This document shows positions 1,093 through 49,067 of a stretch of DNA of 64,000 bases, one piece after another. The notes beneath the pieces were generated by a model, which had not been told where the DNA came from, made no database searches, and saw only the letters and a program-made list of their open reading frames with translations. Location of the stretch: positions 1,366 through 65,365 of the forward strand of contig JBNAVT010000003.1 of assembly GCA_049700215.1 (NCBI GenBank), read 5' to 3'. A program made the translations under genes and the position numbers. This DNA comes from Thermoproteota archaeon. GTDB lineage: Archaea > Thermoproteota > EX4484-205 > JAAOZP01. Each line of letters starts with the position of its first letter. The stretch's first letter is position 1.

Positions 1093-1137
1093 CCTGCTTA
1101 GCGCGCTTAGTCTCAGCCAAGAATCCTAGGCTTGAGG

Positions 1138-2679
1138 CTAGGCGACGTGTCTCCCCAAGTATCCCCTGTGCTTCTTGAAAGAGCTTCTCAGGCTTCTGCC
1201 CACCAGGTTGTGAATCTCCTGAAGCTCCCTGTACTTCTCAACGTTAGACGGCTTCGGGCTGACACGCGTCTCCTCGTCGAGCTTAACATACCGGTCGCAC
1301 ACCTCCTGAATACTGGTCTTCTCGCCAACATGGTTCAGGTAGCACCATATTGCTTGAAGAGCCGCCCCGTAGGCCGCGCCCTCGTCGATCTTAATGCAGA
1401 CGACTTCAGCGTTGAAAACATCCGCCGCAATCTGCCTCCAAGCCCTGTTCTTCGACCCTCCGCCAGTCAGCCTTATCTCGCCGGGCCTTATCCCGAGTTC
1501 CCTCATCCTGTTCAACCCGTAGTTCATCCCGAGAGTAACGCCCTCCATGGCTGCCCTCGCAATACACTGCCTGTTGAAAGTCCTGCTGTTCAACCCGTAG
1601 TATACGCCCGTGCCCTCCGGGACGTTAGGCGTCCTCTCCCCCTCGAAGTAGGGGATTAGAAGCAGCCCGTTTGAGCCAGGGGGAGCCTCCTCAACAATCC
1701 TTGTCAACTTGTCATGCGTCATTTCGAAAAGCTCCCTGACATACTCAGTGGCCACAGTAACGTTCATAGTGCACAAGAGGGGTAGCCAAGCGTTCGTAGA
1801 GTCGCAGAAGGCAGCTATCTCCCCCTTGGGATCCACCACCGGCTTCTCAGAGTAGGCGTATATCGTGCCCGATGTTCCGAAGCTGGCTGTAACAACACCC
1901 TTCCTCACGTTACCTGTTCCAATAGCGCCCATCATGTTGTCCCCTCCCCCCGCGCTGACGATAACGTCTTCCCTGAAGCCAAACTCCTCCGCCACTCCCC
2001 TCCTGATTACTCCAGCAGGCTTATCCGAGCCCTGCAGCGGGGGAAGCCTGCTCCTGAGCCCCGGGTCAATCGCGTCAACAACCCTCCTACACCAGACTCT
2101 CCTCCTCACATCCATCAACGCTGTTCCAGACGCGTCGCCATACTCCATAACCATGTTCCCCGTCAAATAGTAGTTCAAATAGTCGTGGGGCAGGAGAACG
2201 TGGCGCAGCCTAGCGTAGTTTCCAGGCTCGTTCCTCTTAAGCCAGAGTATTTTGGGAGCAGTGTAGCCGGGGAGTATCGGGTTCCCCATGAGCCTTAAAA
2301 CATTCTTGACTCCGCCGAGCCTCCTAGTCAAGTATTCACACTCCCTCGCCGTGCTGGTGTCGTTCCAGAGCTTCGCAGGCCTTATTACCCTGCCGTTCTC
2401 GTCAAGCGGGACGAAACCATGCTGCTGGCCTGAAACCCCTATGGCCCTCACGCCCCTGGGGTCTATCCCCGTCTTAGACAAAACCTCTCTAACAGTCTTA
2501 TGGAACGCGTTGATCCAAACCTGCGGGTCCTGCTCCTTATGGCCGGGTGGAAGATTCTCTATCAAACCATAGTTTTCAACAGCCTTGCCGACAACGGAGC
2601 CGGTCTCGCCGTGGACAAGCAGCGTCTTCATGCTCTGCGTGCCTAAATCAACCCCGATGAAATACGTGTTCCCCTCCAT
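1138..2679 (-). CDS. xylB: Xylulokinase (FGGY family)
   Basis: GVDLGTQS, GVSGQQHG, KLWNDT, GGGDNMMGAIG, PYFEGERTP, LTGGGSK motifs; ATG at 2679. Confidence 0.9.
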   Translation of the reverse strand: MEGNTYFIGVDLGTQSMKTLLVHGETGSVVGKAVENYGLIENLPPGHKEQDPQVWINAFHKTVREVLSKTGIDPRGVRAIGVSGQQHGFVPLDENGRVIRPAKLWNDTSTARECEYLTRRLGGVKNVLRLMGNPILPGYTAPKILWLKRNEPGNYARLRHVLLPHDYLNYYLTGNMVMEYGDASGTALMDVRRRVWCRRVVDAIDPGLRSRLPPLQGSDKPAGVIRRGVAEEFGFREDVIVSAGGGDNMMGAIGTGNVRKGVVTASFGTSGTIYAYSEKPVVDPKGEIAAFCDSTNAWLPLLCTMNVTVATEYVRELFEMTHDKLTRIVEEAPPGSNGLLLIPYFEGERTPNVPEGTGVYYGLNSRTFNRQCIARAAMEGVTLGMNYGLNRMRELGIRPGEIRLTGGGSKNRAWRQIAADVFNAEVVCIKIDEGAAYGAALQAIWCYLNHVGEKTSIQEVCDRYVKLDEETRVSPKPSNVEKYRELQEIHNLVGRSLRSSFKKHRGYLGRHVA

Positions 2680-2906
2680 TTTTCCCGCTGGAGAAAGAAA
2701 TCGGCTGAACAATATTTAAACGTTAAAAACAGAGATTCTGCTCGAACCATTGCATCTCTTTCAAGTTTTAAAAGAATTGTTGTAAGGCGAACCATGAAAA
2801 ATAAACATTTACCCATATCAATAGGTTCAAAAGGTTGGGACGACGTGTTCTTCAGAAAGATGGCTCAAGCATTAACCATATATACCAGCGATGTTTGCCC
2901 GTAAAC

Positions 2907-3863
2907 ATGCCAATAATAGATCTGCCGCTGGAGCAGCTTAAGGTTTACAAGCCTCCGCTTACGAGGAGAAGCGATTTCCAGAGCTTCTGGAATGAGAACA
3001 GGAGGCTCTCCGAGGAGCAGCCTTTAAACCCGGTTTTAAAAAAGCTGGAATACCCTGTGAAAAGGCTTGAAGCATACCTGCTCTCCTTCGACGGCTTCAT
3101 GGACAGGACTCCAGTAAAATCCTGGTTCATAAAGCCAGTTGGAAAAGGGCCTTTCCCAGCTCTCCTTTTCCCACACGGCTACGGTTGGCACAGGGGCACT
3201 GTCTCAGACTACCTGGGCTGGATACTGCAGGGAGTTGTTGTGATGGCGGTCGACGTGAGGGGTCAATTCGGAGACACTCCTGACTTCGCGAAATACCCTT
3301 CTGGAAGCGTCACAGGATACATGACTAAAGGCATACTTGACAAGAACACTTACTACTACAGGTATGTCTACATGGATTGCGCTCGCGCGCTTAAAATCCT
3401 CTGCGAGAGGGAGGATGTTGACGAGAACCGTGTCGGCGTGGCTGGAGCCAGCCAGGGAGGAGGCTTAACGCTCGTAACCTCAGCCCTATGTGGAAAAGTC
3501 TCCCTATCCCTCCCGGAAATACCCTTCCTATGCCATTTCGAAAGGGCTGTTGAAGTAGCGGCTTCAGACCCCTACCTGGAGATACCCCGATACCTGAAGA
3601 TGCATCCCGACAAGGTTGAGAAGGTTTTTGAAACACTCTCCTACTTCGACGCGATGAATTTTGCCCCAGATGTTAAGTGCCCAATCCTCATGTCAGTCGG
3701 CCTACTGGACACGGTTTGCCCGCCTTCAACCATTTTCGCAACCTTCAACCACATAGCTTCCGGAAGCAAGGAGCTCGCGGTTTACCCGGGAATGGGTCAT
3801 GAATGCCCAAGCGTGCACAGAGAGAAAATGATAGAGTGGGTAGCCAAATACTTGCTGCAATAG
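2907..3863 (+). CDS. Acetylxylan esterase / cephalosporin-C deacetylase (CE7)
   Basis: N-terminal DLPLEQL, HGYG, DVRGQ, nucleophile GASQGG, D..CPPST, GHE. Confidence 0.9.
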   Translation: MPIIDLPLEQLKVYKPPLTRRSDFQSFWNENRRLSEEQPLNPVLKKLEYPVKRLEAYLLSFDGFMDRTPVKSWFIKPVGKGPFPALLFPHGYGWHRGTVSDYLGWILQGVVVMAVDVRGQFGDTPDFAKYPSGSVTGYMTKGILDKNTYYYRYVYMDCARALKILCEREDVDENRVGVAGASQGGGLTLVTSALCGKVSLSLPEIPFLCHFERAVEVAASDPYLEIPRYLKMHPDKVEKVFETLSYFDAMNFAPDVKCPILMSVGLLDTVCPPSTIFATFNHIASGSKELAVYPGMGHECPSVHREKMIEWVAKYLLQ

Positions 3864-4297: not shown

Positions 4298-5335
4298 CTA
4301 TCTCGACCAGCGTTCCTCCGCCGGGGGCAGTGCTGGGAAGGGCGCGTGCGGCTCAGTCTGATACCAGTATGCTACTGAAGCAATATCGTCAGTAAGAGGC
4401 TGAAACTTACGGTCAGGATACCATCCTAAGGCTTGAATAGTAACCTTCAGGTCTCTCTTGAACCTTACGGGGTCCAGTATGTGCCACCTGTAGAGCGCGT
4501 GCCTAGGAACCTCACCCGGCTCCCTCCTGTAGAGAGGATAGCCCAGGAAGGCTGTTGAAAAAGTCTCGCCGCCGAAGCACCATGCTCCCCCGAAATAGTC
4601 CTCCGTGCCAGTTCCACAAATAGTCGGATACTCAGTGTCGCCGTCTATGAAGAACTTTACCTCCCCCTCTCCCCACCAGCCGTTAGAAAGCTGCGTCCAG
4701 GCTAAGACTGTTCCAACGTAGTGCCCGCTTCCCCTGACGCCGTCGAGAATCGTGTGCTGCGGGTTCTGCCTGCTGGTCATGGAGCGCCTCCACTGAGCGT
4801 GGAAACACGCCATTCTATCCTTAACCTCCTCCAGCGAGTAGGTGATCTGATAGTAGAACCCTCCTATGTCCTCGATCCACTGGTTTTCAACAGTTATCAC
4901 CGCGCTCCTCCTGAAAGGCATTGGAAAGTAGCAGTTGAACCCTCCGGAGGGGTTTACCGCGATGGGTATTGAGTTGACATTGTACCTCAACCCGTGGCAG
5001 TTTGCGAAGAAATCTCCGAGAGGGACTTCGACGGAAGGCTTCTCCTCACCATCCCAGTAGAAGCGTAGGACGCAGTTCCTGTAGGCTTTAGCGTCAACGG
5101 TTAGCCAAATGTGGCGGATGAAGCCGCTTCCCCTTATGTCTGCAAGCTTAACCGTCTCCCCCCTCGGCAGCGTTATGCAGGGCCTCACCTTCCAGCCTTT
5201 CCCAAGCCTTGAAGCAGGGCTTTTATCATCCGGAGCCTCCATCGCCCCCCTTCCCTTTTCGCCAGTAGGGTTCTCCGCTGAAATTGAACGCGTCTCAGCG
5301 TCGCTCAGCTCGGGAAGATAGTGTAGGAACACCAT
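4298..5335 (-). CDS. Glycoside hydrolase family 172 (DUF2961)
   Basis: SISAENPTGEKG, WWGEGEVKFFIDGD, GTGTEDYFGG, SVAYWYQ motifs. Confidence 0.9.
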   Translation of the reverse strand: MVFLHYLPELSDAETRSISAENPTGEKGRGAMEAPDDKSPASRLGKGWKVRPCITLPRGETVKLADIRGSGFIRHIWLTVDAKAYRNCVLRFYWDGEEKPSVEVPLGDFFANCHGLRYNVNSIPIAVNPSGGFNCYFPMPFRRSAVITVENQWIEDIGGFYYQITYSLEEVKDRMACFHAQWRRSMTSRQNPQHTILDGVRGSGHYVGTVLAWTQLSNGWWGEGEVKFFIDGDTEYPTICGTGTEDYFGGAWCFGGETFSTAFLGYPLYRREPGEVPRHALYRWHILDPVRFKRDLKVTIQALGWYPDRKFQPLTDDIASVAYWYQTEPHAPFPALPPAEERWSR

Positions 5336-5449
5336 TTCTAACACCGTTCTACGCTAAGGATTGCTTTAAATAAGTCTTTCTCCACGGATTCCATCTAATA
5401 TTTAATTTTTTTATCTCTATTTGTTTTCAAAATTTAGTGCAGACAGAAC

Positions 5450-5545
5450 GAGTTCAACCTCGCTAGCGACGCCGAGCCTAGCGGCCTTTCTTTAGGCTAG
5501 GGCTGTAGCAAATCCTGTATGGCTAATCCGGTTGAATCAAAAAAA
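5450..5545 (-). pseudogene. Remnant of the 3' end of a second alanine dehydrogenase copy
   Basis: Aligns by eye with 6418-6515; reads FDSTGLAIQDL...RKAARLGVASEVEL with a deletion and a stop. Confidence 0.75.
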
Positions 5546-5680
5546 CTCTTACTTTTAAGCAGCCTAAAACCCGCTGAGAAAGCACGCGCTGCAAGGGAAG
5601 CTCCTCTTAACCTCGTATTCACCAGCAACCTTATCCAGTTCACGGTAGAGAGGAAGGTTCTACGTCTCAGTAGAAGATGA

Positions 5681-5696
5681 TAGCGCGCGCGCGCTA
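5681..5696. repeat. TA(GC)nTA palindromic junction motif
   Basis: Perfect palindrome TAGCGCGCGCGCGCTA upstream of vapBC. Confidence 0.85.
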
Positions 5697-5757: not shown

Positions 5758-5999
5758 TGACAGTAATTACAATACGGGTGGATGAGGAAACGAAAAGAAT
5801 GATGAAGAAGATGAGGGTTAACTGGAGTGATTTCATCAGAAACGCGATAAGGATGAAGATAGAGGAAGAGAATAGGAAGAACATGGCCAAAGCAGTTCTG
5901 ATCAACGAGAAGCTGAGGAGGAAAAGCAGGGGTGAAGCCAAGGCTGAAGAAATCATCCGGAGATTTAGGGAAGAACGATACGCCTCTAGCAGTTGTTGA
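5757..5999 (+). CDS. vapB: VapB-type RHH antitoxin
   Basis: TVITIRVDEE...VNWSDFIRNAI; ends EEIIRRFREER; overlaps the PIN gene. Confidence 0.85.
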   Translation: MTVITIRVDEETKRMMKKMRVNWSDFIRNAIRMKIEEENRKNMAKAVLINEKLRRKSRGEAKAEEIIRRFREERYASSSC

Positions 6000-6393
6000 C
6001 GCGAGCATAGTAGTAAAGTGGTTCGTTGAAGAAGAGAATTCTGAAAAAGCCTTAGAGATTAGAGACAGATATGTTGAGGGAGAAATGAAACTGATAGCTC
6101 CTGAAATCATAATCTTCGAGGTGTTGAACGCTTTATATTGCAAGAAGCTTTTCTCAGAGGCCGATATGAAAGAGATTTCTGACGCCCTGTATTCGTATTC
6201 GTTTGACTTATACTCTCTTAAAGGCAAATATGCAGAGAAAACCATAGAAGCAGCGTTCGAGAACGCTATAACAATTTACGATGCATCCTACGTTTCCCTA
6301 GCAATCATGAAGAACGCTTACTTTTATACGGCAGACAGGAAGCTAATAGATGGGTTGAGAGAAGAATATTCAAAGCATGTTAGAGTAATATAG
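5980..6393 (+). CDS. vapC: VapC PIN-domain toxin (start uncertain: ACG at 5980 or GTG at 5932)
   Basis: VVDASIVVKWF, EVLNAL, IYDASYVSLA, TADRKL. Confidence 0.85.
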   Translation, partial: TPLAVVDASIVVKWFVEEENSEKALEIRDRYVEGEMKLIAPEIIIFEVLNALYCKKLFSEADMKEISDALYSYSFDLYSLKGKYAEKTIEAAFENAITIYDASYVSLAIMKNAYFYTADRKLIDGLREEYSKHVRVI

Positions 6394-6408: not shown

Positions 6409-6411
6409 AAT

Positions 6412-8436
6412 CTAAAGGAGTTCAATTTCACTGGCGATGCCGAGCCTTCTAGCCTTCCTGTAAACCAGGGCTGCCGCGGCTAAGTCTTGTATGGCCAAAC
6501 CCGTGGAATCGAATATTGTTATCTCGTCATCACTAGTCCTCCCGGGCTTTCTCCCAACTATGATTTCACCTAGTTCCGCATGTATCTGCTCAGGCTTGAA
6601 AATGCCTTTTGAAACAGGAACGTTCAGCTCCCCATAGTGACATGCCTGCTCGTAGTCATCCACGACGACCTTCGCCCTCTTAAGAATCATGGGGTCCAGC
6701 TCCTCCTTTCCAGAATTACCATTCATAGTAACCCTGCCATTTCGTTTTATGATAAGTATGTGGTTCTTGTCCAGTTGTGGACAGGCTACTAAAGAGTTAT
6801 TTTTTACATATTTTACGTCTTGCCCATATATGCTTCGCGTAGCATACCCCTTCTCTGCTCCAATTTGAACGGTATAAACCGGATGAATAGGGTTAATTTT
6901 TCTATTGAGAAATCCTCCCGTCGTTATCCTGCCCTTTCCTTCCGACCCAACTGTGCAGAATCTTCCAAGTTTTATTGCGAGTTCTATAACGTTGTCTGCT
7001 AGAACTTTTGACGTAGTAGAATATGCACATCTTTCCCTCCCTCCTCCAGTCCTTCTCCTCCAACCGTCTCCGTCTATCAAGGAGTTGAATAAATGGATAA
7101 GGTATTTTTTATCAAGTTCCAGAAATTCTTTAGGTATTCTTTTTTCATGCCTGTTTTTTCCTACATTATTTTTTAGGTATTCATAGATTTGCTTAGATCC
7201 AAATGACCAGCCATCCTTTAATCTAGTAGCATGCAAACCCATTCTGGCTAGCAGCCTCCCAACCCTCTCGCTTTTTCGTTTATCTTTTTGGTGTATGTTT
7301 ATACTATAATTTGAAGCTTTTAGAGAACCCTCGGAGATAAACCATCCCAAAAATTCCATCCAATCCTTCATTTTAAAACTATATTCTTTCTGATAGTTGT
7401 TGGTCTTTTTTATTTTTGGAAGAATGAAAGTTTTTCTATCCACACCTTTCCATTTAACTTTTATAGTTGTCACAGTCTGCCATCTATTTATCAACTCCGA
7501 AGCTTTAACGAAGCCTAAAAATCTTTGTCCGTCGCGTGAAAAACTTGGGATATTATGATTAGGTGTAACTAAAAAATCTGTATATAGGTTCCTTACATGA
7601 ACCATATCACCATTGAATTCATAGAAGTGCATTTTTATTACGCTAGCTTTTTCGAGTAGACCGTTATTTGGGTTTACTGACCATACGGTCATGCCTTCCT
7701 TTATTTCTCCAACTGGAATAAAACCATCCGGCGTCATTATTCCAGTATCGAGAGAATAGCAAGCGTCTGCACCTATAGCGTTAATATGCATGCCCTCTTC
7801 AACCCATTCGTTTTCAACCAGGGGCCGGGTTACTGGCGTGGTCGTCACTAGGATGTCGCAGCCTCTCACTGTTTCCTCAACACTCTCTTTAACCACGATT
7901 TTTAGGCCGAGGTACTGCATGTCTTTCGCAAACTTTTCACACTCCATTCTCGTCTTAGCGCAAACCCTGGCCTCCTCTATCTTGAAAACCTCGTTCAAAG
8001 CCATTAGCTGGGTCCTAGCCTGGGATCCTGCGCCAACCATCCCGATTACTCTTGAACTCCTCCTTGCGAGATGCTTTGCAGCCACACCCCCGGTTGCTCC
8101 TGTCCTCATGCTGGTCAGATAAGTGCCATCCATAATGGCCAGAGGCCTACCAGTATCAGGCTCTATCAGGACTATTGTCGCCATGACCGTGGGTAAGCCG
8201 TGTTTCTCAGGATTGTTCGGGTGCACGTTCACTATTTTCACGCAAGCCATCTCGAGGTCTGGAATATACGCCATCATCGTCCTATAATCGCCCTCCGGTA
8301 AGGTTATGTAGAGTTTCGTCGGCATCTGCACCCTCCCCATTGCTTTAGCCCTGAAAGCCTCCTCCATCGCGTCCATCAGCTCCCTCATTGAAACAATTCT
8401 TTCAACGTCCTTTCTCGTGATTAAAGAGACTTTCAT
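6412..8436 (-). CDS. ala: Archaeal alanine dehydrogenase (ornithine cyclodeaminase/mu-crystallin family), intein-containing
   Basis: KIVNVHPNNP, TSMRTGA, GAGSQARTQ, HINAIGAD, FDSTGLAIQD; exteins total about 325 aa. Confidence 0.9.
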   Translation of the reverse strand: MKVSLITRKDVERIVSMRELMDAMEEAFRAKAMGRVQMPTKLYITLPEGDYRTMMAYIPDLEMACVKIVNVHPNNPEKHGLPTVMATIVLIEPDTGRPLAIMDGTYLTSMRTGATGGVAAKHLARRSSRVIGMVGAGSQARTQLMALNEVFKIEEARVCAKTRMECEKFAKDMQYLGLKIVVKESVEETVRGCDILVTTTPVTRPLVENEWVEEGMHINAIGADACYSLDTGIMTPDGFIPVGEIKEGMTVWSVNPNNGLLEKASVIKMHFYEFNGDMVHVRNLYTDFLVTPNHNIPSFSRDGQRFLGFVKASELINRWQTVTTIKVKWKGVDRKTFILPKIKKTNNYQKEYSFKMKDWMEFLGWFISEGSLKASNYSINIHQKDKRKSERVGRLLARMGLHATRLKDGWSFGSKQIYEYLKNNVGKNRHEKRIPKEFLELDKKYLIHLFNSLIDGDGWRRRTGGGRERCAYSTTSKVLADNVIELAIKLGRFCTVGSEGKGRITTGGFLNRKINPIHPVYTVQIGAEKGYATRSIYGQDVKYVKNNSLVACPQLDKNHILIIKRNGRVTMNGNSGKEELDPMILKRAKVVVDDYEQACHYGELNVPVSKGIFKPEQIHAELGEIIVGRKPGRTSDDEITIFDSTGLAIQDLAAAALVYRKARRLGIASEIELL
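6715..7761 (-). mobile_element. Intein with LAGLIDADG homing endonuclease (349 aa)
   Basis: Starts CYSLDTGI after GADA; block B LVTPNHNI; FLGWFISEGS, LFNSLIDGDG, YSTTSKVLA; ends TMNGN before +1 Ser; AT-rich relative to the exteins. Confidence 0.92.
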
Positions 8437-31635: not shown

Positions 31636-31703
31636 CCTAGATGCTAACCTTCCAACCTTCCAAGCATTTTCGGGCGAGAAAGGTTTCGATCCACGCACGC
31701 TAC

Positions 31704-31826: not shown

Positions 31827-31841
31827 TAGCGCGCGCGCTAG
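31827..31841. repeat. TA(GC)nTA palindromic junction motif
   Basis: TAGCGCGCGCGCTAG. Confidence 0.85.
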
Positions 31842-38365: not shown

Positions 38366-38614
38366 CTGTCCGACGGCAAGCTTGAAAAACCCTCTGCGCA
38401 TGGCGTACACCGTGCTAGACGATAAGGCGTAGCCGTCTTAGCACGCTAGAGGCGTTGCTGCGCGTCGCGGGAGTTTCGACATGAAAGTAAGCCTAGGGGA
38501 AAGTAGGGTTCATGTTCAATTCGTAAACGGTTTAAAGACGTCCGAATCAGCGCGTGCTCAGAGTTTAATCAGGAGAGGGAAACAGATAAATTGAAGCCAT
38601 GAGATGTTCTACAC

Positions 38615-39472: not shown

Positions 39473-42025
39473 TTAATCCCAGTGCAGTTTTTTCTTAAGG
39501 GTTTTTAAGGCTGCTTCAAAACTCCCTTTAAAACCGTAAAGATAGTAGGTGAAGTAGGTTGTCGTGCCCGTGTTAACCCTTATCCAGGGCTGAACCTCAA
39601 CATAGGAGTAGTGTGAATCAGGGTTATCCGGAGTGTTCATCCAGACGTGGGTGAGAAACGGGGTTTTAGAGTCGTAAGCCATTATGAGCCCAAGCTCCTC
39701 CTGCTCGTCGTAGCACGCGACCCAGTCTTCAGTGAGGAAGAGCCTTTTACCGTAGAGCCTACCCTTATACCTCTCCTTGAGAATGCCGTTGCTTGAAGGA
39801 TAGTAGATCACGTGGCTGGCGTCAACACTGTTTCCAAGCCTGATCAAAGGGTTGACTCCGATCACGTTGAGCTCGGGATTGACAAAATCTGCCTCATACC
39901 TGACTTCTAGAAGCGGAGTTCCTCCGTAGAGCGTGAAGGTCTTCTTTAAAACGTTCCCATTCATATTGCCCTCTGCAGTAACTACGGCGCTCTCCCCCTC
40001 TTTCCTCAATATTCTGATCTTGAATTTTTCATGGCCCTCGACGGTCGGCTGCTGTATGAACTCCTCTAAACCTCCAAAGGGATAGAACCTCCTCTTCCTG
40101 CCTGAAACCCTCCAGTCCTCAGGCTTCTTAGGGTATAGTTTGAAGAACAGGTCTGCCTCCGGCTTTTTAAGCCTATACTCGAGCAACCTTCCTCCTGGGG
40201 AAATCACTTTAGCCACTATGTACCTGTTTTCAAGCACGGCTTCCTCGAGACCATCCCCGTCATAGTCCCCGGTGTAAGCCACGGCCTCTCCTTCAAAGCC
40301 ACGCGTCTTAATCCTGCAGGTTGCGTTTCCGGAGGAGAACGATATGTTTAACAAGTATTCCCCGTTTTCAAGAGTCAGGGGGATTACGGTTTTGTACGGC
40401 TTGTGAATGGGAGCCCGGATTCTCCGCGCTTCCTCAAGAATCGTCCTCTCTCTTGACGAGACACTGATCTTTAAGTCGCCGGTCTCAACACCGGTACAAT
40501 TCCAAATGGTAACCGGTATCTCTAACCGGCCTTTCGAAACCAGCAGGGGGAAAGTGGAAATCATGGGCGGTACCTCAACATAGCACAGGTTTCTCCAACA
40601 ATTATCTTTCGTAAGAAACTCGACCAGCAGCAGCCCATATGACCCGCTTAGCTCTTCAGATATCGATACCTCGAGAGTAATCTCGCTCTTCCCTCTCCCT
40701 TCAAAATGCGCCGCCATTTTACCAGGCGGATTTACTCTAATCCCGGGGCTCGCCTTAATCTGGAGAACCCCGTCTAAAGGCTCGTTAAGCCTGTTCTCCA
40801 TGGCGACTCTAAGGAGCCTGCCTTCCAGCTTTGAAGATAGTGAGAAGAATGTCCCGAAAGTCCTACGGAGATACTGCTTGTCTGCGAGAAGTATTCTCAA
40901 CAGGTTTACGAGCATTGAAGGACCCACCGTCTTACCGTCTTCAAACACTCCCACGGCTTTCCGCGAAAGAATCGTTTTCATAATTCTTTCCTCGGATGAT
41001 AGTTCATGATCCTCCTTGTCGACGAACAGCCAGATTGAAGGAGGTGCCTCCCCCCATTCCAAATGGTATGGAAGAATTAAGAAGGGTGTTTCCAGCTCCT
41101 CCAGACACTCGGTGTTGCCCTCGTGAAAAACATAGCCGTCCAAATGGTTCTTCAACACGTCGACATCCGAATCCAGAAGATTGTTGAACACTCCGAAAAG
41201 CATTTCTCCGGGCTTCTTCATTCTACACGCGTCAGCCGCACCGGAGGACTGGGGATCAGGATACTCGTCCCAATTAACCATGAGACACTTGCCGTCGCCG
41301 GTGAACTGGCCTGAGAAAACAGTGAAATCAAGGCCGAGCTCCTTTATCTTTGGCACCAACTCCCTAACCGTTAAATCCTCGCCGGGGCCTACGAGGAAAA
41401 CCCATTTACAGCCCAGCCTAAGGGCATCCGCCAATATTTTACCCGGGTGCCTGGGCAGGGGGGTCACCATATACCTGCCACTTGCACAGAATGGCCACCC
41501 CTTCCAGACTTCATGTGTGTTCAAAATCTTCTTCCCCTGGCTAAGTAGCTCCAGCAGTCTTCTAGACTCCTCAAGACCCCTCGCGGCGATAATCACCGCG
41601 GTCTTTCGACTACCGTGCTGCTGGAGATAGAGGAGGAAAACATCCTTGCCCCAGTGCTCCTCTGGGACTCCCTGTTTAAGCATTGCCAAGAGTTGCGTGT
41701 TGAAGTCGAGGAGAACGATCAGGTTGGATTCGGCTAAGCTCTTCTGAAACTCCTCGGGAGGAGGGTTTGAGACAACTTTGAAACCCTCTAGTTTCATAAA
41801 CATTTCGAAAAAACCTTTTTCCATCCAGAATCTTCCGAAGCCCTTTAAAAAATTGTTCTTTCTCTCAATGTTTTTCACCTTAGCATCAAGGTCTTCGAGA
41901 CAAAAATCTATCCCAAGGTACGAGGCTGAGACCCATGTTTTCCCCATCCATTCGCGCGAGAATCCTTCAAACCCGTCCTCGAAAAGCGTAAAATCATACG
42001 GACGGTTTTCGGAGGCTTCGTCCAT
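39473..42025 (-). CDS. Large hypothetical protein with C-terminal galactose-mutarotase-like supersandwich domain
   Basis: 850-aa ORF; DYDGDGLEEAVLENRY...GGRL motif typical of carbohydrate-related supersandwich domains. Confidence 0.6.
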   Translation of the reverse strand: MDEASENRPYDFTLFEDGFEGFSREWMGKTWVSASYLGIDFCLEDLDAKVKNIERKNNFLKGFGRFWMEKGFFEMFMKLEGFKVVSNPPPEEFQKSLAESNLIVLLDFNTQLLAMLKQGVPEEHWGKDVFLLYLQQHGSRKTAVIIAARGLEESRRLLELLSQGKKILNTHEVWKGWPFCASGRYMVTPLPRHPGKILADALRLGCKWVFLVGPGEDLTVRELVPKIKELGLDFTVFSGQFTGDGKCLMVNWDEYPDPQSSGAADACRMKKPGEMLFGVFNNLLDSDVDVLKNHLDGYVFHEGNTECLEELETPFLILPYHLEWGEAPPSIWLFVDKEDHELSSEERIMKTILSRKAVGVFEDGKTVGPSMLVNLLRILLADKQYLRRTFGTFFSLSSKLEGRLLRVAMENRLNEPLDGVLQIKASPGIRVNPPGKMAAHFEGRGKSEITLEVSISEELSGSYGLLLVEFLTKDNCWRNLCYVEVPPMISTFPLLVSKGRLEIPVTIWNCTGVETGDLKISVSSRERTILEEARRIRAPIHKPYKTVIPLTLENGEYLLNISFSSGNATCRIKTRGFEGEAVAYTGDYDGDGLEEAVLENRYIVAKVISPGGRLLEYRLKKPEADLFFKLYPKKPEDWRVSGRKRRFYPFGGLEEFIQQPTVEGHEKFKIRILRKEGESAVVTAEGNMNGNVLKKTFTLYGGTPLLEVRYEADFVNPELNVIGVNPLIRLGNSVDASHVIYYPSSNGILKERYKGRLYGKRLFLTEDWVACYDEQEELGLIMAYDSKTPFLTHVWMNTPDNPDSHYSYVEVQPWIRVNTGTTTYFTYYLYGFKGSFEAALKTLKKKLHWD

Positions 42026-42272
42026 AATTTAAGAATACTGGCTGCTTAAATAAATATAAAGTTTAAGGATAACAGGATGGCGTTGCTTACGACGCGGATT
42101 AAGACTCTATCTCCAAGATAGCGCGCGCCAGCAGGAGTACGACTATTGAGGCTCATCTGGCTGCGACAAGCAATGCTTAAACCCTAGTCGTTAGCAACTC
42201 TGACACCCTCTTTAACCATCCATCGCGCACGCTCCGCCAAGCATCTTAGCGTGCACTAACACTGTTTTCGGT

Positions 42273-42668
42273 TTACGGTATCGTTGTGATTCCAAGCCTC
42301 TTAGACGCATAGCGTTGTTTATCGTCGAGAGTGAGCAACGAACCCTTCTCGTGAAATGCTAGAGCTATGTAGAGCGCGTCATAGACGGTTATCCCGTTTT
42401 CAAGAGCTATTTCAAACGCTTTATCCGTATATTCCTCTTCTCTCCTAAGCGCCATGTTTCTTTCAACATATTCCTTGAATAAGGCTAAAACACGTGAAGC
42501 TTCTTCAACGCCTATTCTCTTAAGGTTCACTGCCTTCCACACGGCATTATAGAACTCTTTAACCGTGTGATCAACAGATACGGTTGCAGCCATGTATTTA
42601 GAGAGCTCGCTCCAACCTTCTTCACGCAGAAAGAAGGCTATGATGGCTGAGGAATCAGCTACTATCAC
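42273..42668 (-). CDS. vapC: VapC PIN-domain toxin
   Basis: IVADSSA, KEFYNAVW, TVYDALYIALA, LTLD. Confidence 0.88.
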   Translation of the reverse strand: MIVADSSAIIAFFLREEGWSELSKYMAATVSVDHTVKEFYNAVWKAVNLKRIGVEEASRVLALFKEYVERNMALRREEEYTDKAFEIALENGITVYDALYIALAFHEKGSLLTLDDKQRYASKRLGITTIP

Positions 42669-42885
42669 GGTCCTCCCTCACGCTCATTGTTGAGAAACCC
42701 TTTGGCACGCTCCATGAGGCTCCTTCCAAAGCCTCAAGAACCTTCTTGAAGTTGTCCTCGGCTTCAAGCTGCCTAATCCTATTCTCGATGAACCTTCTGA
42801 ACTCCTGTGCCCAGTTCACCCTATCCTTATACTTCATCATCTTATCCTTAATCTCCTTCTCAACCTTAACGCTTACAACGCTCAT
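42655..42885 (-). CDS. vapB: VapB-type RHH antitoxin
   Basis: SVVSVKV...VNWAQEFRRFI...SVREDRDS. Confidence 0.85.
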   Translation of the reverse strand: MSVVSVKVEKEIKDKMMKYKDRVNWAQEFRRFIENRIRQLEAEDNFKKVLEALEGASWSVPKGFSTMSVREDRDSS

Positions 42886-42898
42886 ACGATTATTAGTA

Positions 42899-42936
42899 TA
42901 CCATTGGTAGACCATTTTATAAACCTTATGGTCTAC
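42899..42936 (-). promoter_or_regulatory. vapBC promoter with operator inverted repeats
   Basis: TATA box (TTTATAAA) bracketed by GTAGACCAT (42907-42915) and ATGGTCTAC (42928-42936); also TACCA-T-TGGTA at 42899-42909. Confidence 0.65.
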
Positions 42937-43084
42937 TTATATAGCCCCAAGCGCAGGGCTCACGCTAGGGACGGTTTAGAGATTGAAGAAGTAATTAGCG
43001 TGCGCTTAGAAAAAGAGCTATATGCCTATGCTAAACCCCCTATAGTCCTTCTGGTCGCGTAAACCATCTCCACATCCCTAACCC

Positions 43085-43098
43085 TTAGCGCGCGCTAA
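43085..43098. repeat. TA(GC)nTA palindromic junction motif
   Basis: Perfect 14-bp palindrome TTAGCGCGCGCTAA. Confidence 0.85.
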
Positions 43099-43679
43099 CA
43101 AGGTTTCCACGTGTAACATCCTCTTCCACATGGCTACCACCATTCTTAACCAGCTTGCAGCTGTAGCCTACGAACTCACCTGGATTGGTGAAAATCGCGA
43201 CGGCCTCGTCTTCGTTAAATTCTATGGATGAAAGCCTGAGTTCAGGAGGGGTTGGGGCAGTTTCCCCCATGACCCTGATCATGAAGCCTCCAGGTCCTTT
43301 ACTTGTGGCGTTTAGATAAGTCAGGATGGTGTGCTCATCAACGTTTACTATGAAGCTGCTATTTGAGAAAGGGGATCATTGTCGACGCTTATCCATAGTT
43401 GGGCACCGTCTAGGGTAAACATGGGGACTATGACGACATAGAAAATGCCTGTTACAACGACGTTTGGAAGCTGAATAATGTACCAGTCTAGAGCGGAGCT
43501 CTTGAAGACACTGCTGTGGAGGAATGCTGAGCGCGCGCGCAGTATTTTAGTGTTTAACCCGCTGTCCCAGATTTGGACGTAGAAGATGGAGCAGGGTCCC
43601 TGAGCAAACATGTTGCGTGAAGCTCGCGCGCTAATGACAGTAAGGCTAGGGCTAGAATAAGACCCATGAGTCTAACCAT
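43099..43679 (-). pseudogene. Secreted-protein gene remnant cut at three GC motifs
   Basis: Signal peptide MVRLMGLILALALLSL, motif 43623-43634, fragment, motif 43528-43541, frameshifted fragment, motif 43085-43098. Confidence 0.6.
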
Positions 43680-44059
43680 AGCTAGGTTAAGGGTTGAGGT
43701 TTTTAAATAAGTTTTTCAAATATTCTCATCCAACTATATATTAACGCACAGCAGTTCTTCGATTTCCTCAAGCCTAGTGGCGTGCCAAATCGAACGTGTA
43801 AATGATTATAATTGATCCGCCTCCATCAGCGCAGGCTACAGCGACAATGGAAGATGAACCTCATCCCCGTACCAGAGAATGGTATGAGCCTCTTTCCGTC
43901 GAAGCTCAACGTCCCCGTTATAGTGCTGTCCAGCATGCGTAGAGACACCAGCGTGGAGAACCCTCTACCTACGATTTTTAACTCTGAACCTCTTACAGCA
44001 GGTTATCCCCTGCGCGCGCTAATGGTTGAAACGGGTTTATAGAGAAGATTTAGCGTATG

Positions 44060-44494
44060 TTAAAGCTCTAGAAGGACTCGTCTTTTCTGCATGTTCATTG
44101 TCAGCAGCCTCATTTTATTGTTTAAAACCTCTCTGCCCACAAGTACTTCACCCGTCAAGAGTTCGGGCTCTGTGGGGATGTAAACCCTGACCCTGCCGAG
44201 ACCCATCTGCTCCCCGCCATAGTAAAGAGAAGCCTCCGCCACGTATATCTCAAACTCCGAGGCACCGTATAGAGGATTCTCAAAGATGGCCTTAGCAGTT
44301 GGCTCAACTCCTTCGAACATTCTCACTATCTCCATGTTCGGATAGATCCCGCCGTCAAAGCCAGTGTCGATTATAGCCGCCCCGTGTGCCCGATATCTAC
44401 CAGCCCTGATTACGAGATGGATGACTGGTATATCGGGTATTTTTTCCCCGCGATCAGTATACCCGTCCTCGGCATAGTGGTAGCCAATCCTCAT
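44060..44494 (-). CDS. Retropepsin-like (clan AA) aspartic protease domain protein
   Basis: AIIDTGFDG and VLVGREVL motifs. Confidence 0.75.
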   Translation of the reverse strand: MRIGYHYAEDGYTDRGEKIPDIPVIHLVIRAGRYRAHGAAIIDTGFDGGIYPNMEIVRMFEGVEPTAKAIFENPLYGASEFEIYVAEASLYYGGEQMGLGRVRVYIPTEPELLTGEVLVGREVLNNKMRLLTMNMQKRRVLLEL

Positions 44495-44760
44495 TATTCT
44501 TCGATCTCCTCGACAACCCATTTCTCCTTAATCGACCTGCCACGTAGCCGCGGGGACCTGAGCCTGAGGTAGCCGGTAGAACTCAGCTTCCATAAGATAG
44601 TAGGATACCTATGGTCTTTGGCTTCAACCTCCATTCCCAGCTTTTCCTCCAATATTCTAGCTATGGCCTCGCTTCTAGCCATATTCAACTGCTTACAAAG
44701 AGCGTCTACCTTCTTCAGAATGGCTTCCGGAATGCTTACGCTTATCTTAACATTAGTCAT
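44494..44760 (-). CDS. CopG/RHH DNA-binding protein
   Basis: KISVSIPEAILKKVD...ARSEAI. Confidence 0.8.
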   Translation of the reverse strand: MTNVKISVSIPEAILKKVDALCKQLNMARSEAIARILEEKLGMEVEAKDHRYPTILWKLSSTGYLRLRSPRLRGRSIKEKWVVEEIEE

Positions 44761-44978
44761 ACCAAGTAATACTTTTTACTACCTATTTAAGCTTTCGGCT
44801 TTTTGGATCCCGAGTCATTAAACTGCCTAGCGAGCTAGCTTCTAACAGAAGCCTCTCGTTGAAAAAAGTTAATTTCTGCCTTAAGAATTAAGCCGACTTC
44901 TTGCCCTGTCGACTAGGATTCCGCTTTTTCCGCTTTCAGGATGAGCGTAAACTAGTTTCCAGAGAGCACGCTACATGC

Positions 44979-46679: not shown

Positions 46680-46685
46680 CTCAAG

Positions 46686-46993: not shown

Positions 46994-48142
46994 CTAGACA
47001 CGATACTCGAGTCTACCGTTCCTTGAGACAATGACTAGAGAGTTTCCCTCGGAAGATTTCTCACACCTGCCGACTACCTGAGCATCGACGCGGAACTTTT
47101 CAGACACGTCTATAACATTATCCTCATCCCCTTTCTCGACGATTATCTCCAGTCCCACTCCCATGTTGAAGATGCGATACATGTTTCTCGAGGCCTCCCG
47201 GCTCTCAGCCTGAATTAGTCTGAATATTGGGTCCGGTTCAGGAAGATTATCCTTCACATACTTTATGTTGCTCCCTATTTTCAAGCATTTCGATAATCCT
47301 CCGCCAGTATTGTGAATTATGGCTTTAACCTTAACCCTTTTCAGGACTTCAAGTATTATAGGCAGATAGATTCTAGTCGGCGACAACAAGGCTTCCCCAA
47401 TAGTCATGTTAAGCTCGTCGACGAAGGAATCCATTTTGAAGCGGCCATAATATCCTTTAACTTCTCCCGAACATGTCTCAGGGTATTTCTTCAAGTATTC
47501 TCCAGCCAGGAGGCAGTGTCTAGCAAGAGTTATCCCGTTACACATTATTCCACTGTTCTCCTTCTCCTCATATGCCGACCTTCCTCCGCTCCTCAACCCG
47601 ACTATAATATCCCCCGGCAAGACGTTTCCACCAGTCACCGCCTTAGAGAGCTCTACTCTAGCCATTACTGTCCCTGAAACGTCGAATGTTCTGACAATAT
47701 CTGGCAGGTCAGCCGTCTCGCCTCCGCTGAAAAGAACACTGGCCCCGTTATCCCTAAGCGTTGAAAAGACTCTGGAGAAGCCTTTAGCCAGGCTTTTAAG
47801 GAGCTCCTGCTTAGGGACTTTGAAAGGGTTTACCGCGACATAGTCTGAGAAAGCCACTGGAAACCCTCCTACGCACGCCGCGTCATCAACATTCATGGCG
47901 ACAACGTCGTCAGCCAATGTTTCGAAAAACTTCTCCTCACCAGTCTCCTTATAGTAGAGGTAGGAGACAACCGGCTTGGTTCCAGCACCATCAGTATGAA
48001 GAACTATCCCCCAGCCCGGGTTTAAAGGATCCTTAACAATCGGGGAGAAGGCTCCGGGGAAAACGTCGTCCGTAATCTTTTTCAAAAACTCCACTCCTTT
48101 CTTACTTACGTCTACGCCAAGCTCCTCATACCTTGAAGACAT
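46994..48142 (-). CDS. purM: AIR synthase (phosphoribosylformylglycinamidine cyclo-ligase)
   Basis: YEELGVD, TDGAGTK, VAMNVDD, GGETAD, HNTGGG, FNMGVG. Confidence 0.88.
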   Translation of the reverse strand: MSSRYEELGVDVSKKGVEFLKKITDDVFPGAFSPIVKDPLNPGWGIVLHTDGAGTKPVVSYLYYKETGEEKFFETLADDVVAMNVDDAACVGGFPVAFSDYVAVNPFKVPKQELLKSLAKGFSRVFSTLRDNGASVLFSGGETADLPDIVRTFDVSGTVMARVELSKAVTGGNVLPGDIIVGLRSGGRSAYEEKENSGIMCNGITLARHCLLAGEYLKKYPETCSGEVKGYYGRFKMDSFVDELNMTIGEALLSPTRIYLPIILEVLKRVKVKAIIHNTGGGLSKCLKIGSNIKYVKDNLPEPDPIFRLIQAESREASRNMYRIFNMGVGLEIIVEKGDEDNVIDVSEKFRVDAQVVGRCEKSSEGNSLVIVSRNGRLEYRV

Positions 48143-48250
48143 TCCTGCAACCACTCCAGCGTAGAACTCTTAAATCTTTAAACTCTCCTCTAGTTAGCGC
48201 GCTGCTCATATTTTGGAATTTTGCCTACTCGTATGCGTTCCCGAGACTTG

Positions 48251-48986
48251 CTAGCGTATGTGTAAAACTGGCTTCGGCCTATATGGCTCCTCCAGGTACT
48301 TGATCTCGTCATCCGTCAGCTAGCGCGCGCTACAGCGTTGGGGCTGTAGGGTATAAGCGCAATGTTATACGTCTTGCAAAAGGGTATCATCTCCCTCTCC
48401 TCCTCGCGGTAAAGCAGGTTATAGAGGTTCTGCATGCTTACGAACTTCTCGTAGCACTTCATCTCGCTGGTGAAGTAGGCGGTGGCGAACTGCCACGTCC
48501 ACATGCTGGACGCGCCCATGCACCTCACCTTTCCCTGATGCACTAAACAGGTTAATGTGGATAAAGTCTCATCTATCCCGGTGGAGTAGTCCCACCTGTG
48601 TATCTGGTAGAGGTCTACGTAACCGGTCTTGAGCCTGCTGAGCGACCCCTCTATCTGCCTCAAAATATGCTTCCTTGAAAGCCCTGAGTCGTTTGGCTTG
48701 TCCCCCATGGGGAAGAACACTTTTGTGGCCACCACCGCGTCCTCCCTTCTTCCCTGCAGAAACCCCCAAGTATCTCCTCAGACTTTCCCCTCGAGTACAC
48801 GTTGGCAGTGTCGTAGAAGTTTATGCCGAGGTCCCACGCCCTGTTCAAAAACTTGAAAGCCTCCTCTTTGCCGGAAACCCAGCCCCCTCCCCCGAAGGGT
48901 TGCAAAGCCGGGTCGCCGAAAGACATGGCTCCCAGGCAGATCTTTGAAACCTTAAGCCCAGACCAGCCTAAGCGAACATACTCCAT
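48251..48986 (-). pseudogene. Aldo/keto reductase (YajO-like) with a frameshift and an internal deletion
   Basis: LGWSGLKVSKICLG, DTANVYS, frameshift near 48763-48767, DLYQIHR, PYSP, motif 48320-48333, then LTDDEIKYLEEPYRPKPVLHIR*. Confidence 0.88.
48320..48333. repeat. TA(GC)nTA palindromic junction motif
   Basis: CTAGCGCGCGCTAC at the AKR deletion junction. Confidence 0.88.
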
Positions 48987-49067
48987 TTGTCGAATCATGC
49001 TTTTACAAGATATATAAGCATTTGCCGAGGCACGCGTGCACGTTAAGAATTTTAAAAATAGTTTAGG

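Follow-up and report, generated by a model that had tools for sequence, protein, structure and literature searches.

Why does a short palindrome of alternating G and C recur at the places where genes are cut? The question is raised by a stretch of 64,000 nucleotides (nt) from a Thermoproteota archaeon (lineage EX4484-205; JAAOZP01), hereafter the window, which corresponds to positions 1,366 to 65,365 of contig JBNAVT010000003.1 in GenBank assembly GCA_049700215.1 (G000:C3:1366-65365 in our notation for genome, contig and positions). The assembly, G000, comprises 2.09 Mb in 85 contigs and is 94.6% complete. An initial annotation of the window, made from sequence alone, had described a motif of the type TA(GC)nTA that recurs about 30 times and marks deletion and rearrangement junctions, and had offered four possible origins for it: filler DNA from an end-joining primase or polymerase, the opening of hairpin-capped ends, the excision footprint of a mobile element, or the core site of a recombinase. 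Here we consider what this motif is, how it comes to lie where it does, and whether a two-gene operon, RadA2-AEP, might be responsible for it.

The recurrence is borne out by recounting. An alternating G/C core was found at all 31 listed positions, with exact (GC) or (CG) runs of at least 6 nt at 21 of them and degenerate runs (of the GCGTGC/GCACGC type) at the other 10, and the annotation's own regular expression matches 10 listed positions. Seven further runs had escaped the list (3384, 36601, 41953, 46130, 58895, 62145 and 62672), only one of which, that at 36601, has the A..T frame, and there is indeed no framed copy in 10.8-23.3 kb or in 49.1-64 kb of the window. Chance does not account for these numbers: the regular expression is matched 10 times in the window, whereas 200 third-order Markov simulations gave 1.1 matches on average and 6 at most, and A(GC)>=3T occurs 208 times in the whole genome against 25.4 in simulation (maximum 30, 10 simulations). 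The commonest 10-mer of G000 is AGCGCGCGCT, and the 12-mer TAGCGCGCGCTA has 35 copies, with none for any of the controls TA(CG)4TA, AT(GC)4AT and AT(CG)4AT. Runs in (GC) phase number 156 at 6 nt, 166 at 8 nt, 51 at 10 nt and 2 at 12 nt, which agrees with the variable n noted at the outset and gives a sharp peak at 8 nt. At (GC)4, position -1 is A in 138 of 166 cases and position +1 is T in 137, the next bases outward are T in 89 and A in 92, and no signal is seen further out. The motif unit has a defined length, about TA(GC)4TA. As GCGC is only mildly avoided in G000 (observed/expected ratio 0.74 after masking), to a degree similar to other palindromes, there is no restriction signal.

A constant filler at break-repair joints

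Whether the motif precedes the cut or arrives with it can be read most directly at the aldo-keto reductase gene, for which an internal deletion had been annotated at 48320. There, G000 reads ...GTCAGCT-AGCGCGCGCT-ACAGCG..., where three other genomes of the genus (G002, G009 and G010) keep 285 bp between CAGCT and ACAGCG with no motif and a contig from a sequencing run of a relative (X4) has 284 letters in place of the motif. The open reading frame (ORF) left over in G000 has a Pfam match limited to profile positions 66-191 of 291, and the intact alleles, the X4 contig and this partial match together confirm the deletion. Sequencing runs, which were checked as Logan contigs rather than as raw reads and of which those containing the window are labelled hot-spring metagenomes, show that such junctions recur in independent data: a contig of X2, a second sample from another study, covers 47853-48534 with 0 differences, and the contigs of X1, the probable source, likewise agree. 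Another gene, of 173 aa, has lost 157 bp from its interior in G009, where AGCGCGTGCT closes the gap, and also shows a truncation closed by GCGCACGCTA; six other copies of it have no motif at these two positions. Among paralogues in G000, AGCGCGCGC and AGCGCGCGT stand in two where a third has 50 bp instead.

A wider comparison was made with G002, the closest relative (mean identity 88.7% over 548 kb aligned), in which 661.7 kb, about 30% of the genome, could be compared. When the sites of G000 were mapped on G002 with 120-nt flanks, both flanks could be placed for 38 of 424 loosely defined sites, yielding 13 G000-specific events in which G002 has 31-1,170 bp where G000 has a (GC)n run. In the reverse direction both flanks were placed for 13 of 56 sites, which comprise five deletions (37-1,997 bp), three pure insertions (one that duplicates 4-5 bp of its target, one that is exactly the 10-nt AGCGCGCGCT and one 26-nt insert) and two shared decayed sites, the remainder being less clear. 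Overall, the lineage-specific deletions span 31-1,997 bp, and the motif allele has 8-14 nt of (GC)n instead. In 9 of 20 events an open frame of at least 239 aa encloses the long allele, which makes the motif allele the derived and gene-breaking one, and in the aldo-keto reductase event the long allele is common to three genomes. The initial annotation had pointed out that copies of the motif at both breakpoints of intact orthologues would reduce the phenomenon to ordinary microhomology deletion; such copies were looked for and the intact allele carries none at a breakpoint in any of the 18 lineage-specific deletion events, which excludes deletion between resident copies. Its central inference, that the motif is added at junctions rather than resident there, agrees with every clean comparison (G002, G009, G010 and X4).

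The process is by no means rare. Among 33 simple insertions or deletions (indels) of at least 20 bp that distinguish G000 from G002, 10 show an exact run where the ends meet, and a further 1 was classed as degenerate. Around homology breakpoints, 30 of 291 have a run no more than 15 bp away in G000 (52 when either genome is counted). The corresponding share is 1.07% for random positions and 4.3% for random positions outside ORFs, and breakpoints are enriched 2.4-fold over the latter. A constant palindromic filler is placed at the break-repair joints of this clade, and its placement is frequent, old and ongoing.

The anatomy of the joints could be followed on the 27 of 44 junction sides that were anchored. 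Native sequence reaches the run, or 1-3 nt into it, on 17 sides; the last base alone is new on 7 (6 of them with native ...T followed by an added A), and the last two bases are new on 3, so that at least 1 nt is shared with the TA(GC)n unit on 24 of the 27. Ends pair with the unit via 1-4 nt: native ...T is followed by A(GC)n, ...TA by (GC)n, and ...TAGC or ...CGGC by a shorter run. One event has native TA on both sides and only GCGCGCGC added; in another, native TAGC and TA leave GCGC as the sole addition. The outer T/TA, which had been taken as part of the added motif, is thus mostly native, and it is the (GC)n core that is added, often by itself; a constant unit of about TA(GC)4TA is joined through 1-4 nt of microhomology. 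Past the breakpoints, native sequence bears no resemblance to the motif. Flank sharing between sites is at chance level (28 vs 22 at k=8), 101 half-open sites have no common inner sequence, and around the runs nothing is conserved beyond -2/+2, which argues that the donor is a discrete unit and not another genomic copy read through. Template switching from other genomic motif copies was accordingly rejected, flanks being shared only at chance level.

Once in place, the filler decays. The suggestion that variants arise by transitions is upheld, since single changes inside the (GC)4 core comprise 21 transitions vs 6 transversions; paralogous copies in G000 differ by one transition, and the very few copies conserved between G000 and G002 are decaying. 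Decay through GCGC methylation was also considered and was dropped because a C5 (Dcm-type) methylase gave 0 hits in all motif-bearing genomes.

Probable scars and captured DNA in the window

The sites in the window and the features linked to them are the following (a strand is given where one applies).

1098-1110: TTAGCGCGCTTAG, in the spacer between convergent genes, the spacer sequence being unrelated in G007, G010 and G009
5445-5555: copy A of a duplicated target segment of ~110 bp, a decayed 3' end of gene 6412-8436
5681-5696: TAGCGCGCGCGCGCTA (n=6), within an inserted 0.85-kb segment
6396-6408: TTAGCGCGCTTAG, exact joint between inserted DNA and target copy B (6409-6520)
24563-24574: TAGCGTGCGCTA, with one transition, left edge of a 143-bp module
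24718-24729: TAGCGCGCGCTA, right edge of the 143-bp module
25068-25079: TAGCGCGCGCTA, in ORF-poor DNA (24.4-25.6 kb)
28935-28948: TAACGCGCGCGCGG, within ~1 kb of DNA unmatched in relatives
29289-29301: CGCGCGCGCTTGG, half-framed, between two small ORFs
29763-29778: AAGCGCGCGCGTGCTA, close to where the 1-kb extra DNA ends on the right, as aligned with G007, G010 and G002
30410-30423: AGCGTGCGCGCTAA, deletion junction on the 5' side of a NosD remnant
30429-30656, + strand: NosD/beta-helix gene fragment of 75 aa (PF05048, E 2.6e-9), between two motif copies
30705-30718: AACGCGCGCGCTAG, the other junction of the NosD remnant and left edge of module 30717-31680
31692-31703: CACGCACGCTAC, decayed, bounding a 76-bp remnant of a second DUF5107 gene copy
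31827-31840: TAGCGCGCGCGCTA (n=5), in the spacer ahead of copy 2 of the 173-aa gene
42119-42129: TAGCGCGCGCC, homology border, X1 and X4 contigs diverging from the window from 42130
42247-42258: TAGCGTGCACTA, with two transitions, left edge of VapBC-like module 42257-42937
42995-43009: TTAGCGTGCGCTTAG, to the right of the VapBC-like module
43086-43097: TAGCGCGCGCTA, near-pure insertion (net +8 bp) in a surface-protein pseudogene
43528-43544: TGAGCGCGCGCGCAGTA, in-frame replacement of 6 bp by 15 bp in the same pseudogene
43623-43634: CTCGCGCGCTAA, internal deletion junction between the signal-peptide part and the body of the same pseudogene
44011-44022: TGCGCGCGCTAA, ahead of module 44057-44803
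48194-48205: TTAGCGCGCTGC, old decaying copy at the same position in four species
48321-48332: TAGCGCGCGCTA, 285-bp deletion in the aldo-keto reductase gene, with 10 nt added (AGCGCGCGCT)
49029-49042: GGCACGCGTGCACG, old decayed copy adjoining a ~45-bp deletion

Several of these sites border DNA that has been gained. Between genes 4298-5344 and 6412-8436, G000 has ~0.85 kb of extra sequence with a PIN-domain ORF (5932-6393), which is missing at this locus in G007 and G009, as judged by alignment, and in G002, as judged by hit coordinates. The ~110-bp segment that forms the 3' end of gene 6412-8436 is present twice in G000 (5445-5555 and 6409-6520) and once each in G007 and G009; as its two copies flank the PIN segment, the latter is an insertion with a long target duplication, and in the alignment homology to G007 and G009 starts again directly after the motif at 6396. 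Modules 24574-24713, 30717-31680 and 42257-42937 are found in relatives at 81-90% identity but in other contexts: the first at G002:C48:3433-3571, the second at G002:C48:3963-4934 and G008:C2:1544-2447, and the third, VapBC-like, at G010:C54:7087-7767 (90% identical), elsewhere in that genome. The DNA found between scars consists mostly of toxin-antitoxin-like pairs (23433-24360, 38615-39431, 42273-42915 and 5932-6393), the types being an NTase-like/HEPN-like pair (by eye), a pair of HEPN and NTP_transf_2, a PIN-like pair with a small partner, and the PIN ORF.

Other sites mark losses. On both sides of the NosD remnant the X4 contig differs from G000, with 1,710 letters where G000 has 30410-30421 and, at 30705, 706 letters vs 1,664, so the 75-aa fragment is what remains of a longer gene after cuts at both ends. 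This is in accord with the earlier description of a remnant with the motif at both ends (30410 and 30705), as is a Pfam match to profile positions 78-141 of 212 only. The DUF5107 remnant proved to be bounded at 31692 as described, homology to the DUF5107 start region beginning directly after the motif. For the ceramidase remnant that had been described as cut at both ends, on the other hand, gene 32365-33654 aligns with its relatives over its full length, and the listed site at 8580 has a context homologous to relatives and looks ordinary. In the surface-protein pseudogene (43040-43722) there are three scars, i.e. 3 copies in 540 bp. At 43086 homology to an intact paralogue (G000:C15:12437-13582) continues on both sides of the insertion, the deletion at 43623 is estimated from alignment at roughly 190 bp, and an X2 contig covers 43505-44396 with 0 differences. 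An apparent 88-bp 'multicopy repeat' at 43635-43722 turned out to be the promoter and signal-peptide part of this surface-protein gene family. Among the old copies, that at 48194 reads TTAGCGCAC in G002, TTGACGCAC in G009 and TTGGCGCGC in G010, and that at 49029 reads TTAGCGCGTGC in G010 and TTAGCGCACAC in G009.

A few neighbouring features may be added. The 173-aa gene, which has no Pfam match, is present in two diverged copies that are ~78% identical (29879-30409 and 31872-32313). The DUF5107/TPR gene occupies 25620-28846 and its second copy is almost wholly deleted (31701-31776); G008 has two DUF5107 copies with a small gene inverted between them, and in G007 and G010 the DUF5107 gene is joined to the 173-aa gene via a spacer of ~117 bp without motif. 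In G009:C2 (L016:346-1551), ~2.2 kb of an 850-aa gene (window 39473-42025) has been deleted at a joint without motif where the two matches overlap by ~10 bp, an example of ordinary deletion coexisting with the filler type.

The RadA2-AEP operon as candidate maker of the filler

The motif is confined to one clade of a hot-spring genus labelled Brockarchaeota. The exact 12-mer is found in 8 of the 16 other genomes of the genus (28, 26, 14, 11, 9, 4, 1 and 1 copies) and is absent from four genus genomes that are at least 91% complete. In a phylum sample of 401 genomes, high counts with clean controls are seen in this clade only: 384 of the 394 genomes outside it have at most one copy, a few unrelated ones have 4-5, and one has 12 with a control count of 4. 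A scan of IMG/VR for TTAGCGCGCGCTAA gave 35 stretches, none related to G000. Two groups among the IMG/VR stretches (L093/L098/L106/L112/L115 and L101/L109/L117) are low-GC (32-35%) and phage-like and have TTAGCGCGCGCTAA in near-identical context, and L097, also unrelated to G000, has three TTAGCGCGCGCTAA copies at its end in a nested inverted repeat.

A primase-polymerase that shares this distribution had been proposed as something to look for. A search for the primase small subunit gave a single hit in 8 of the 9 motif-lacking genomes of the genus (none in G001), and also in G009 and G010, and extra hits in the other six motif-bearing genomes, which led to the following gene.

G000:C17:241-1062: AEP paralog of 273 aa, with EYVIDVDD, a CxxC knuckle, SGSRGFHVHV and D...PxTLNASTG

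This protein scores 32.2 bits against PF01896, above the cut-off of 26.8, and its sequence matches PriS chains 1g71 and 1v33. Among 34 homologues no variation is seen in motifs I (DxD), II (SGxRGxH) and III (D), in the zinc knuckle or in residues D97, D99, H153, H155 and D205. With its structural model (pLDDT 81.5) Foldseek finds archaeal PriS first (E 1.4e-10), then eukaryotic Pri1, and then the LigD and Methanocella non-homologous end joining (NHEJ) polymerases. The AEP is, on this prediction, a credible enzyme, a PriS-like primase-polymerase that is ~100 aa shorter than the PriS of the genus itself (377-aa frame). A collection of 5.8 billion proteins contains 42 relatives, for which the only name that any source supplies is 'hypothetical protein', and the homologues labelled Bathyarchaeia are 36-44% identical. 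Within the genus the AEP is full-length in G000, G002, G006, G007, G008 and G013 and is a broken remnant with stop codons in G009, and it was not found in G010 or in any of the 9 motif-lacking genomes searched; it is thus present in 7 of 8 motif-bearing genomes vs 0 of 9 motif-lacking ones. Across the 401 genomes of the phylum sample, the clade itself apart, it turned up only in G023 and, as a fragment, in G090. The distant homologue in G023 (C10:22664-23383, E 7e-42, 354-aa frame) comes from another genus of the same order.

The conserved neighbour of the AEP is not PriL. Directly upstream of, and overlapping, every full AEP copy lies the gene for a second RadA, named RadA2 (318 aa; PF08423, E 4.6e-90; PF14520 (HhH), E 2.1e-12; PDB chain 1pzn, E 1e-104), which is 50-53% identical to the housekeeping RadA (347-aa frame in G000). 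The latter is the sole RadA found in the five motif-lacking genomes that were searched (G003, G004, G011, G014 and G015) and also in G010, and in G009 a 42-residue remnant of RadA2 is left. Between species, RadA2 is 84-92% identical and the AEP 58-85%, the AEP of G000 being the most divergent: its identity to those of other species is 58-63%, against 83-86% for RadA2, though G000 and G002 are otherwise the closest pair. In G000 the operon (C59:5559-6308 and C17:39-1062) is split by a contig break, the end of C59 being the start of C17 over 55 nt. Broken extra copies of RadA2-AEP are seen at G008:C12:18273-18873, G007:C12:244706-245049, G000:C64/C69/C85 and G002:C5/C63/C47, that of G008 consisting of a RadA2 fragment fused to an AEP fragment and starting at a motif copy, and the pair itself may be duplicated or mobile. 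In G002 and G008, a homologue of the toxin-antitoxin-like pair at 38572-39422 lies 120-250 bp from the operon.

The number of copies of the motif follows the state of the operon. Perfect 12-mers number 35, 28, 26, 14 and 9 in genomes with the whole operon (and 1 in G013, where it is also whole), 11 in G009, where it is broken, and 4 in G010, where it was not found; for each perfect copy, genomes with the operon have 3.2-4.1 copies with at most one mismatch, whereas G009 has 4.5 and G010 has 7.5. Judged from these sequence counts, motif load tracks the operon, being lower where the latter is broken or missing, and in G010 the copies also appear more decayed. A PriS-like AEP together with a RadA paralog therefore shares the distribution of the motif, and filler from an end-joining primase or polymerase fits best among the origins first offered.

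We consider it probable, with moderate confidence, that TA(GC)nTA is the mutational scar of an undescribed break-repair or end-joining process that uses a constant self-complementary filler and that this filler is made by RadA2-AEP, the role of the latter being suggested by co-distribution, operon structure and enzyme class. Broken DNA would be rejoined with a constant unit of about TA(GC)4TA between the two ends, the same palindromic sequence being extended from, or joined to, each broken 3' end. Because the filler is its own complement, any two ends tailed in this way could anneal, over a G+C-rich 8-12 bp whose length would hold at hot-spring temperature, and n=3 or n=5 would follow from annealing in a slipped register. 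Synthesis or addition of the filler would fall to the AEP, and pairing of the tails to the RadA paralog. The scars would later decay by transitions, and, by deleting genes and bordering captured DNA, the process would shape the variable regions of these genomes. A more far-reaching proposal, which we put forward tentatively and would not yet call probable, is that these elements form a new archaeal end-joining pathway in which a RadA paralog translationally coupled to a minimal PriS-like AEP provides any two ends with the heat-stable sticky tail TA(GC)4TA, accounts for about one third of the deletions of at least 20 bp that separate two sister species of the clade, kills genes and pastes in foreign DNA without homology.

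Several points weigh against the reading of the motif as a scar made by RadA2-AEP. The link between operon and motif is, as read from genome sequences, a correlation inside one clade, whose members are kin and hence not independent, so that gaining both just once would account for most of the pattern; the correlation rests on few independent events, one gain and two losses. G013 has an intact operon and 1 exact copy (in a 70%-complete assembly of 1.2 Mb), the distant AEP homologue of G023 is accompanied by one exact motif copy, and G010 (89% complete) has 4 perfect copies and 30 with at most one mismatch yet no operon was found in it, a pattern that fits loss of the operon after a period of activity and fits equally well independence of motif and operon. 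PriS-type enzymes, moreover, normally require PriL, and we know of no source of a constant TA(GC)4TA sequence. Searches for alternative or additional enzymes gave 0 hits in G000 for a reverse transcriptase (PF00078; a template RNA was not searched for) and for Ku (PF02735), and did not find a PrimPol-type AEP (PF09250), a family A polymerase or a true PolX, the palm search giving sub-threshold hits to small nucleotidyltransferases. At the joints themselves, 22 of the 33 simple indels lack an exact run (at least 3 of these hold decayed copies by eye), which indicates that other routes coexist, and some borders of inserted DNA do not coincide with the motif, there being none at the left end of the 1-kb segment, near 28835. 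Finally, the comparison with G002 took in less than a third of the genome, and the ORF model behind the location statistics is crude.

Competing explanations and related systems

Among the other explanations, the one that survives best, although we regard it as unlikely, makes the motif a minimal mobile element (a 'nano-MITE') or the excision footprint of an unassembled transposon with GCGC tips, deletions and rearrangements then following from recombination of resident pairs. Pure insertions do occur, and one has duplicated 4-5 bp of its target; dispensable DNA such as the surface-protein pseudogene is rich in copies, a palindrome can recombine in either orientation, and fragments of the AEP/RadA2 operon are scattered as for a mobile gene. 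However, this model requires two insertions per deletion, and the comparison of G000 and G002 yields 18 deletions vs 3 pure insertions, with no intermediate among the 18 intact alleles. No native TA is duplicated, the insertions lying at ...cctt|ccat..., at ...tcaaa|acag... and in a surface-protein gene, and the half-open sites lack a conserved inner sequence. Metagenome assemblies often lose insertion sequences, but few contig ends lie at the motif: 17 of 170 have a run within 150 bp and, when examined as transposon borders, share no common sequence except in one paralogous pair, and G008, in about 20 contigs, retains 28 copies. As for a transposase, the DDE_3 domain (PF13358) expected of an IS630-type element is found in 0 of 17 genus genomes (compared with 5 of 14 reference genomes used as a control). 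TnpB is not co-distributed either (0 in G002 and G009, 6 in the motif-lacking G011); as genomes with and without the motif both include some that have it, TnpB bears no relation to the motif. G000 has five TnpB-type (PF07282) hits (C60, C46, C49, C19 and C11). The excision footprint suggested at the outset is thus unlikely, with no DDE_3, no conserved ends and few pure insertions, and the opening of hairpins with P nucleotides is at odds with a filler that is constant and unrelated to its flanks.

We give only a slim chance to the idea that a site-specific recombinase or protelomerase-like enzyme uses the motif as its core site and, by cutting and rejoining resident palindromes, regenerates one copy per joint. 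The telomere resolution sites of N15-type phages have a TA(CG)3TA centre, which the core resembles, its symmetry would suit a dimeric enzyme, and the modules between copies differ in order and context across species. This origin, too, had been among the initial options, and it fares badly at the joints, where naive sequences acquire the motif, the parental sites of the 18 deletion events are without it, and native breakpoints are similar to it over 1-4 nt at most. A variable n would in addition alter the spacing of half-sites, the core is not set in an extended inverted repeat (outside the T/A frame the flanks give flat profiles), and ResT/TelK (PF16684) is found in 0 of 17 genomes.

A slightly smaller chance still is left for a selected functional palindrome (a binding or regulatory site, a terminator, or a HIP1-like repeat) that is close to breakpoints merely through a shared intergenic location. 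In its favour, 142 of the 208 sites in G000 lie outside crude ORFs that cover 87.6% of the genome, full copies give stop triplets on both strands, and palindromes are typical binding sites. Breakpoints are nevertheless enriched 2.4-fold even against random non-ORF positions, and broken genes contain copies exactly at their deletion joints. Rapid turnover is apparent from the very few copies, all decaying, that G000 and G002 have in common; n varies, flanking genes are found in every arrangement (<< 37, >< 36, >> 34, <> 22), and the window contains no Rfam family match and no tRNA. An artefact of assembly or library (a linker or chimeric join), for which it could be said that all genomes are metagenome-assembled and that the window is covered by contigs rather than raw reads, is hardly credible given that contigs of X1 and X2, the latter from another study, match the junctions with 0 differences, that the motif is present in 8 of 16 other species-level genomes of the genus with at most one copy in 384 of 394 phylum genomes outside the clade, and that orthologous copies are shared and decayed between species and paralogous ones are one transition apart. 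Certain pairs of short contigs in G000 (C78/C80, C81/C84 and C8/C42) are 82-84% identical over 2.2-2.7 kb, C78 having short ORFs only, and could represent paralogous regions or else come from a second strain in the bin.

If scarring by break repair is thus the preferred reading, the known processes it would most resemble are the insertion of filler in end joining and that of telomeric repeats at breaks. In the comparisons that could be made, the motif lacks defining traits of each known family. Ku-LigD NHEJ also relies on an AEP-fold polymerase such as is suspected here, LigD PolDom (2irx and 4mky) and the Methanocella NHEJ polymerase (5dmu) matching the model of the AEP, and the joints seen here likewise have short microhomologies and deletions of varied size. 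Unlike in that pathway, no Ku is found in G000, the AEP is nearer PriS than PolDom, its partner is a RadA paralog, and the filler is a constant palindrome, which to our knowledge is not a feature of LigD joints. Archaeal PriSL (Sulfolobus) has terminal transferase activity and polymerises across discontinuous templates, and by analogy untemplated addition and end bridging by a PriS core would suit the proposed step; the AEP, in contrast, is much shorter than the PriS of its own genus and is paired with RadA2 instead of PriL, and we know of no report of (GC)n synthesis by an archaeal primase. HIP1 (GCGATCGC) of cyanobacteria is similar in that one short palindrome is the most over-represented oligomer, and it was first noticed at the borders of a deletion. 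HIP1 deletions, however, join two resident copies, and HIP1 spreads by substitution, also within genes, whereas the copies described here arise as indels at joints and break genes. An integron attC site is a 57-141-bp imperfect palindrome at one end of a cassette and works with IntI, unlike the present site of 10-14 nt without extended structure (IntI was not searched for). The 20-40-nt GTAG-headed palindrome of REP/RAYT systems is not seen here either (PF01797 was not searched for), the unit being 10-14 nt and position -3 at (GC)4 near uniform (C 39, A 37, G 36, T 53).

Insertion of telomeric repeats comes close in another respect, as it too adds a constant sequence and its use of a few paired bases at the 3' end fits the joints (at least 1 nt on 24 of 27 sides). 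It differs in that no reverse transcriptase is found in G000, that the sequence here is a palindrome, so that two tailed ends could anneal, and that the host is a prokaryote, with no telomeres as far as we know. In vertebrates, according to the sections of the two reports consulted, a constant, enzyme-specified telomeric repeat is inserted during break repair, and these interstitial repeats were recognised by comparing, between species, loci with and without the insert (PMC2246262; PMC7215372). The GC palindromes of fungal mitochondria, as portrayed in the relevant parts of two papers, are short, G+C-rich, lodged in dispensable DNA, variable between relatives and linked to indels (PMC4478555; PMC7218506), and in the first of these accounts they are longer, hairpin-forming elements with target-site nucleotides (AG) and occasional footprints (PMC4478555). 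The archaeal motif shares with them, as far as those parts go, its nature as a short GC palindrome, its presence or absence among close relatives and its link to indels; it is set apart by a unit of 8-12 bp, by having no constant target duplication and by mostly replacing deleted DNA.

No published description of the motif or of a RadA-AEP module was found in the literature searched, most subscription journals and supplements lying outside that search, and the lists of AEP families in the supplement of PMC5862659 might include the candidate AEP. On HIP1-like iterated palindromes, the literature found was cyanobacterial work only, and the Brockarchaeota paper PMC8065059 makes no mention of palindromes, repeats, pseudogenes, transposition, DNA repair or end joining. 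Even if RadA2-AEP is not the agent, about 30% of deletions carry a constant filler, the product of a mutational process that, in the literature searched, has no description in any prokaryote. Most archaea have no Ku, and NHEJ in these organisms is an open question, on which the clade offers hundreds of natural repair joints with a sequence signature that can be read from genomes alone, together with a concrete two-gene candidate, RadA2-AEP, for expression and assay. There might also be a practical use for an enzyme able to attach a defined sticky sequence to DNA ends at high temperature. If the proposal is true, this would be a new kind of end joining, in which a universal palindromic adaptor replaces filler that is random or derived from the flanks and in which a recombinase paralog has been recruited to non-homologous joining, and it would explain the turnover of variable islands, pseudogenes and toxin-antitoxin cassettes in these thermophiles.

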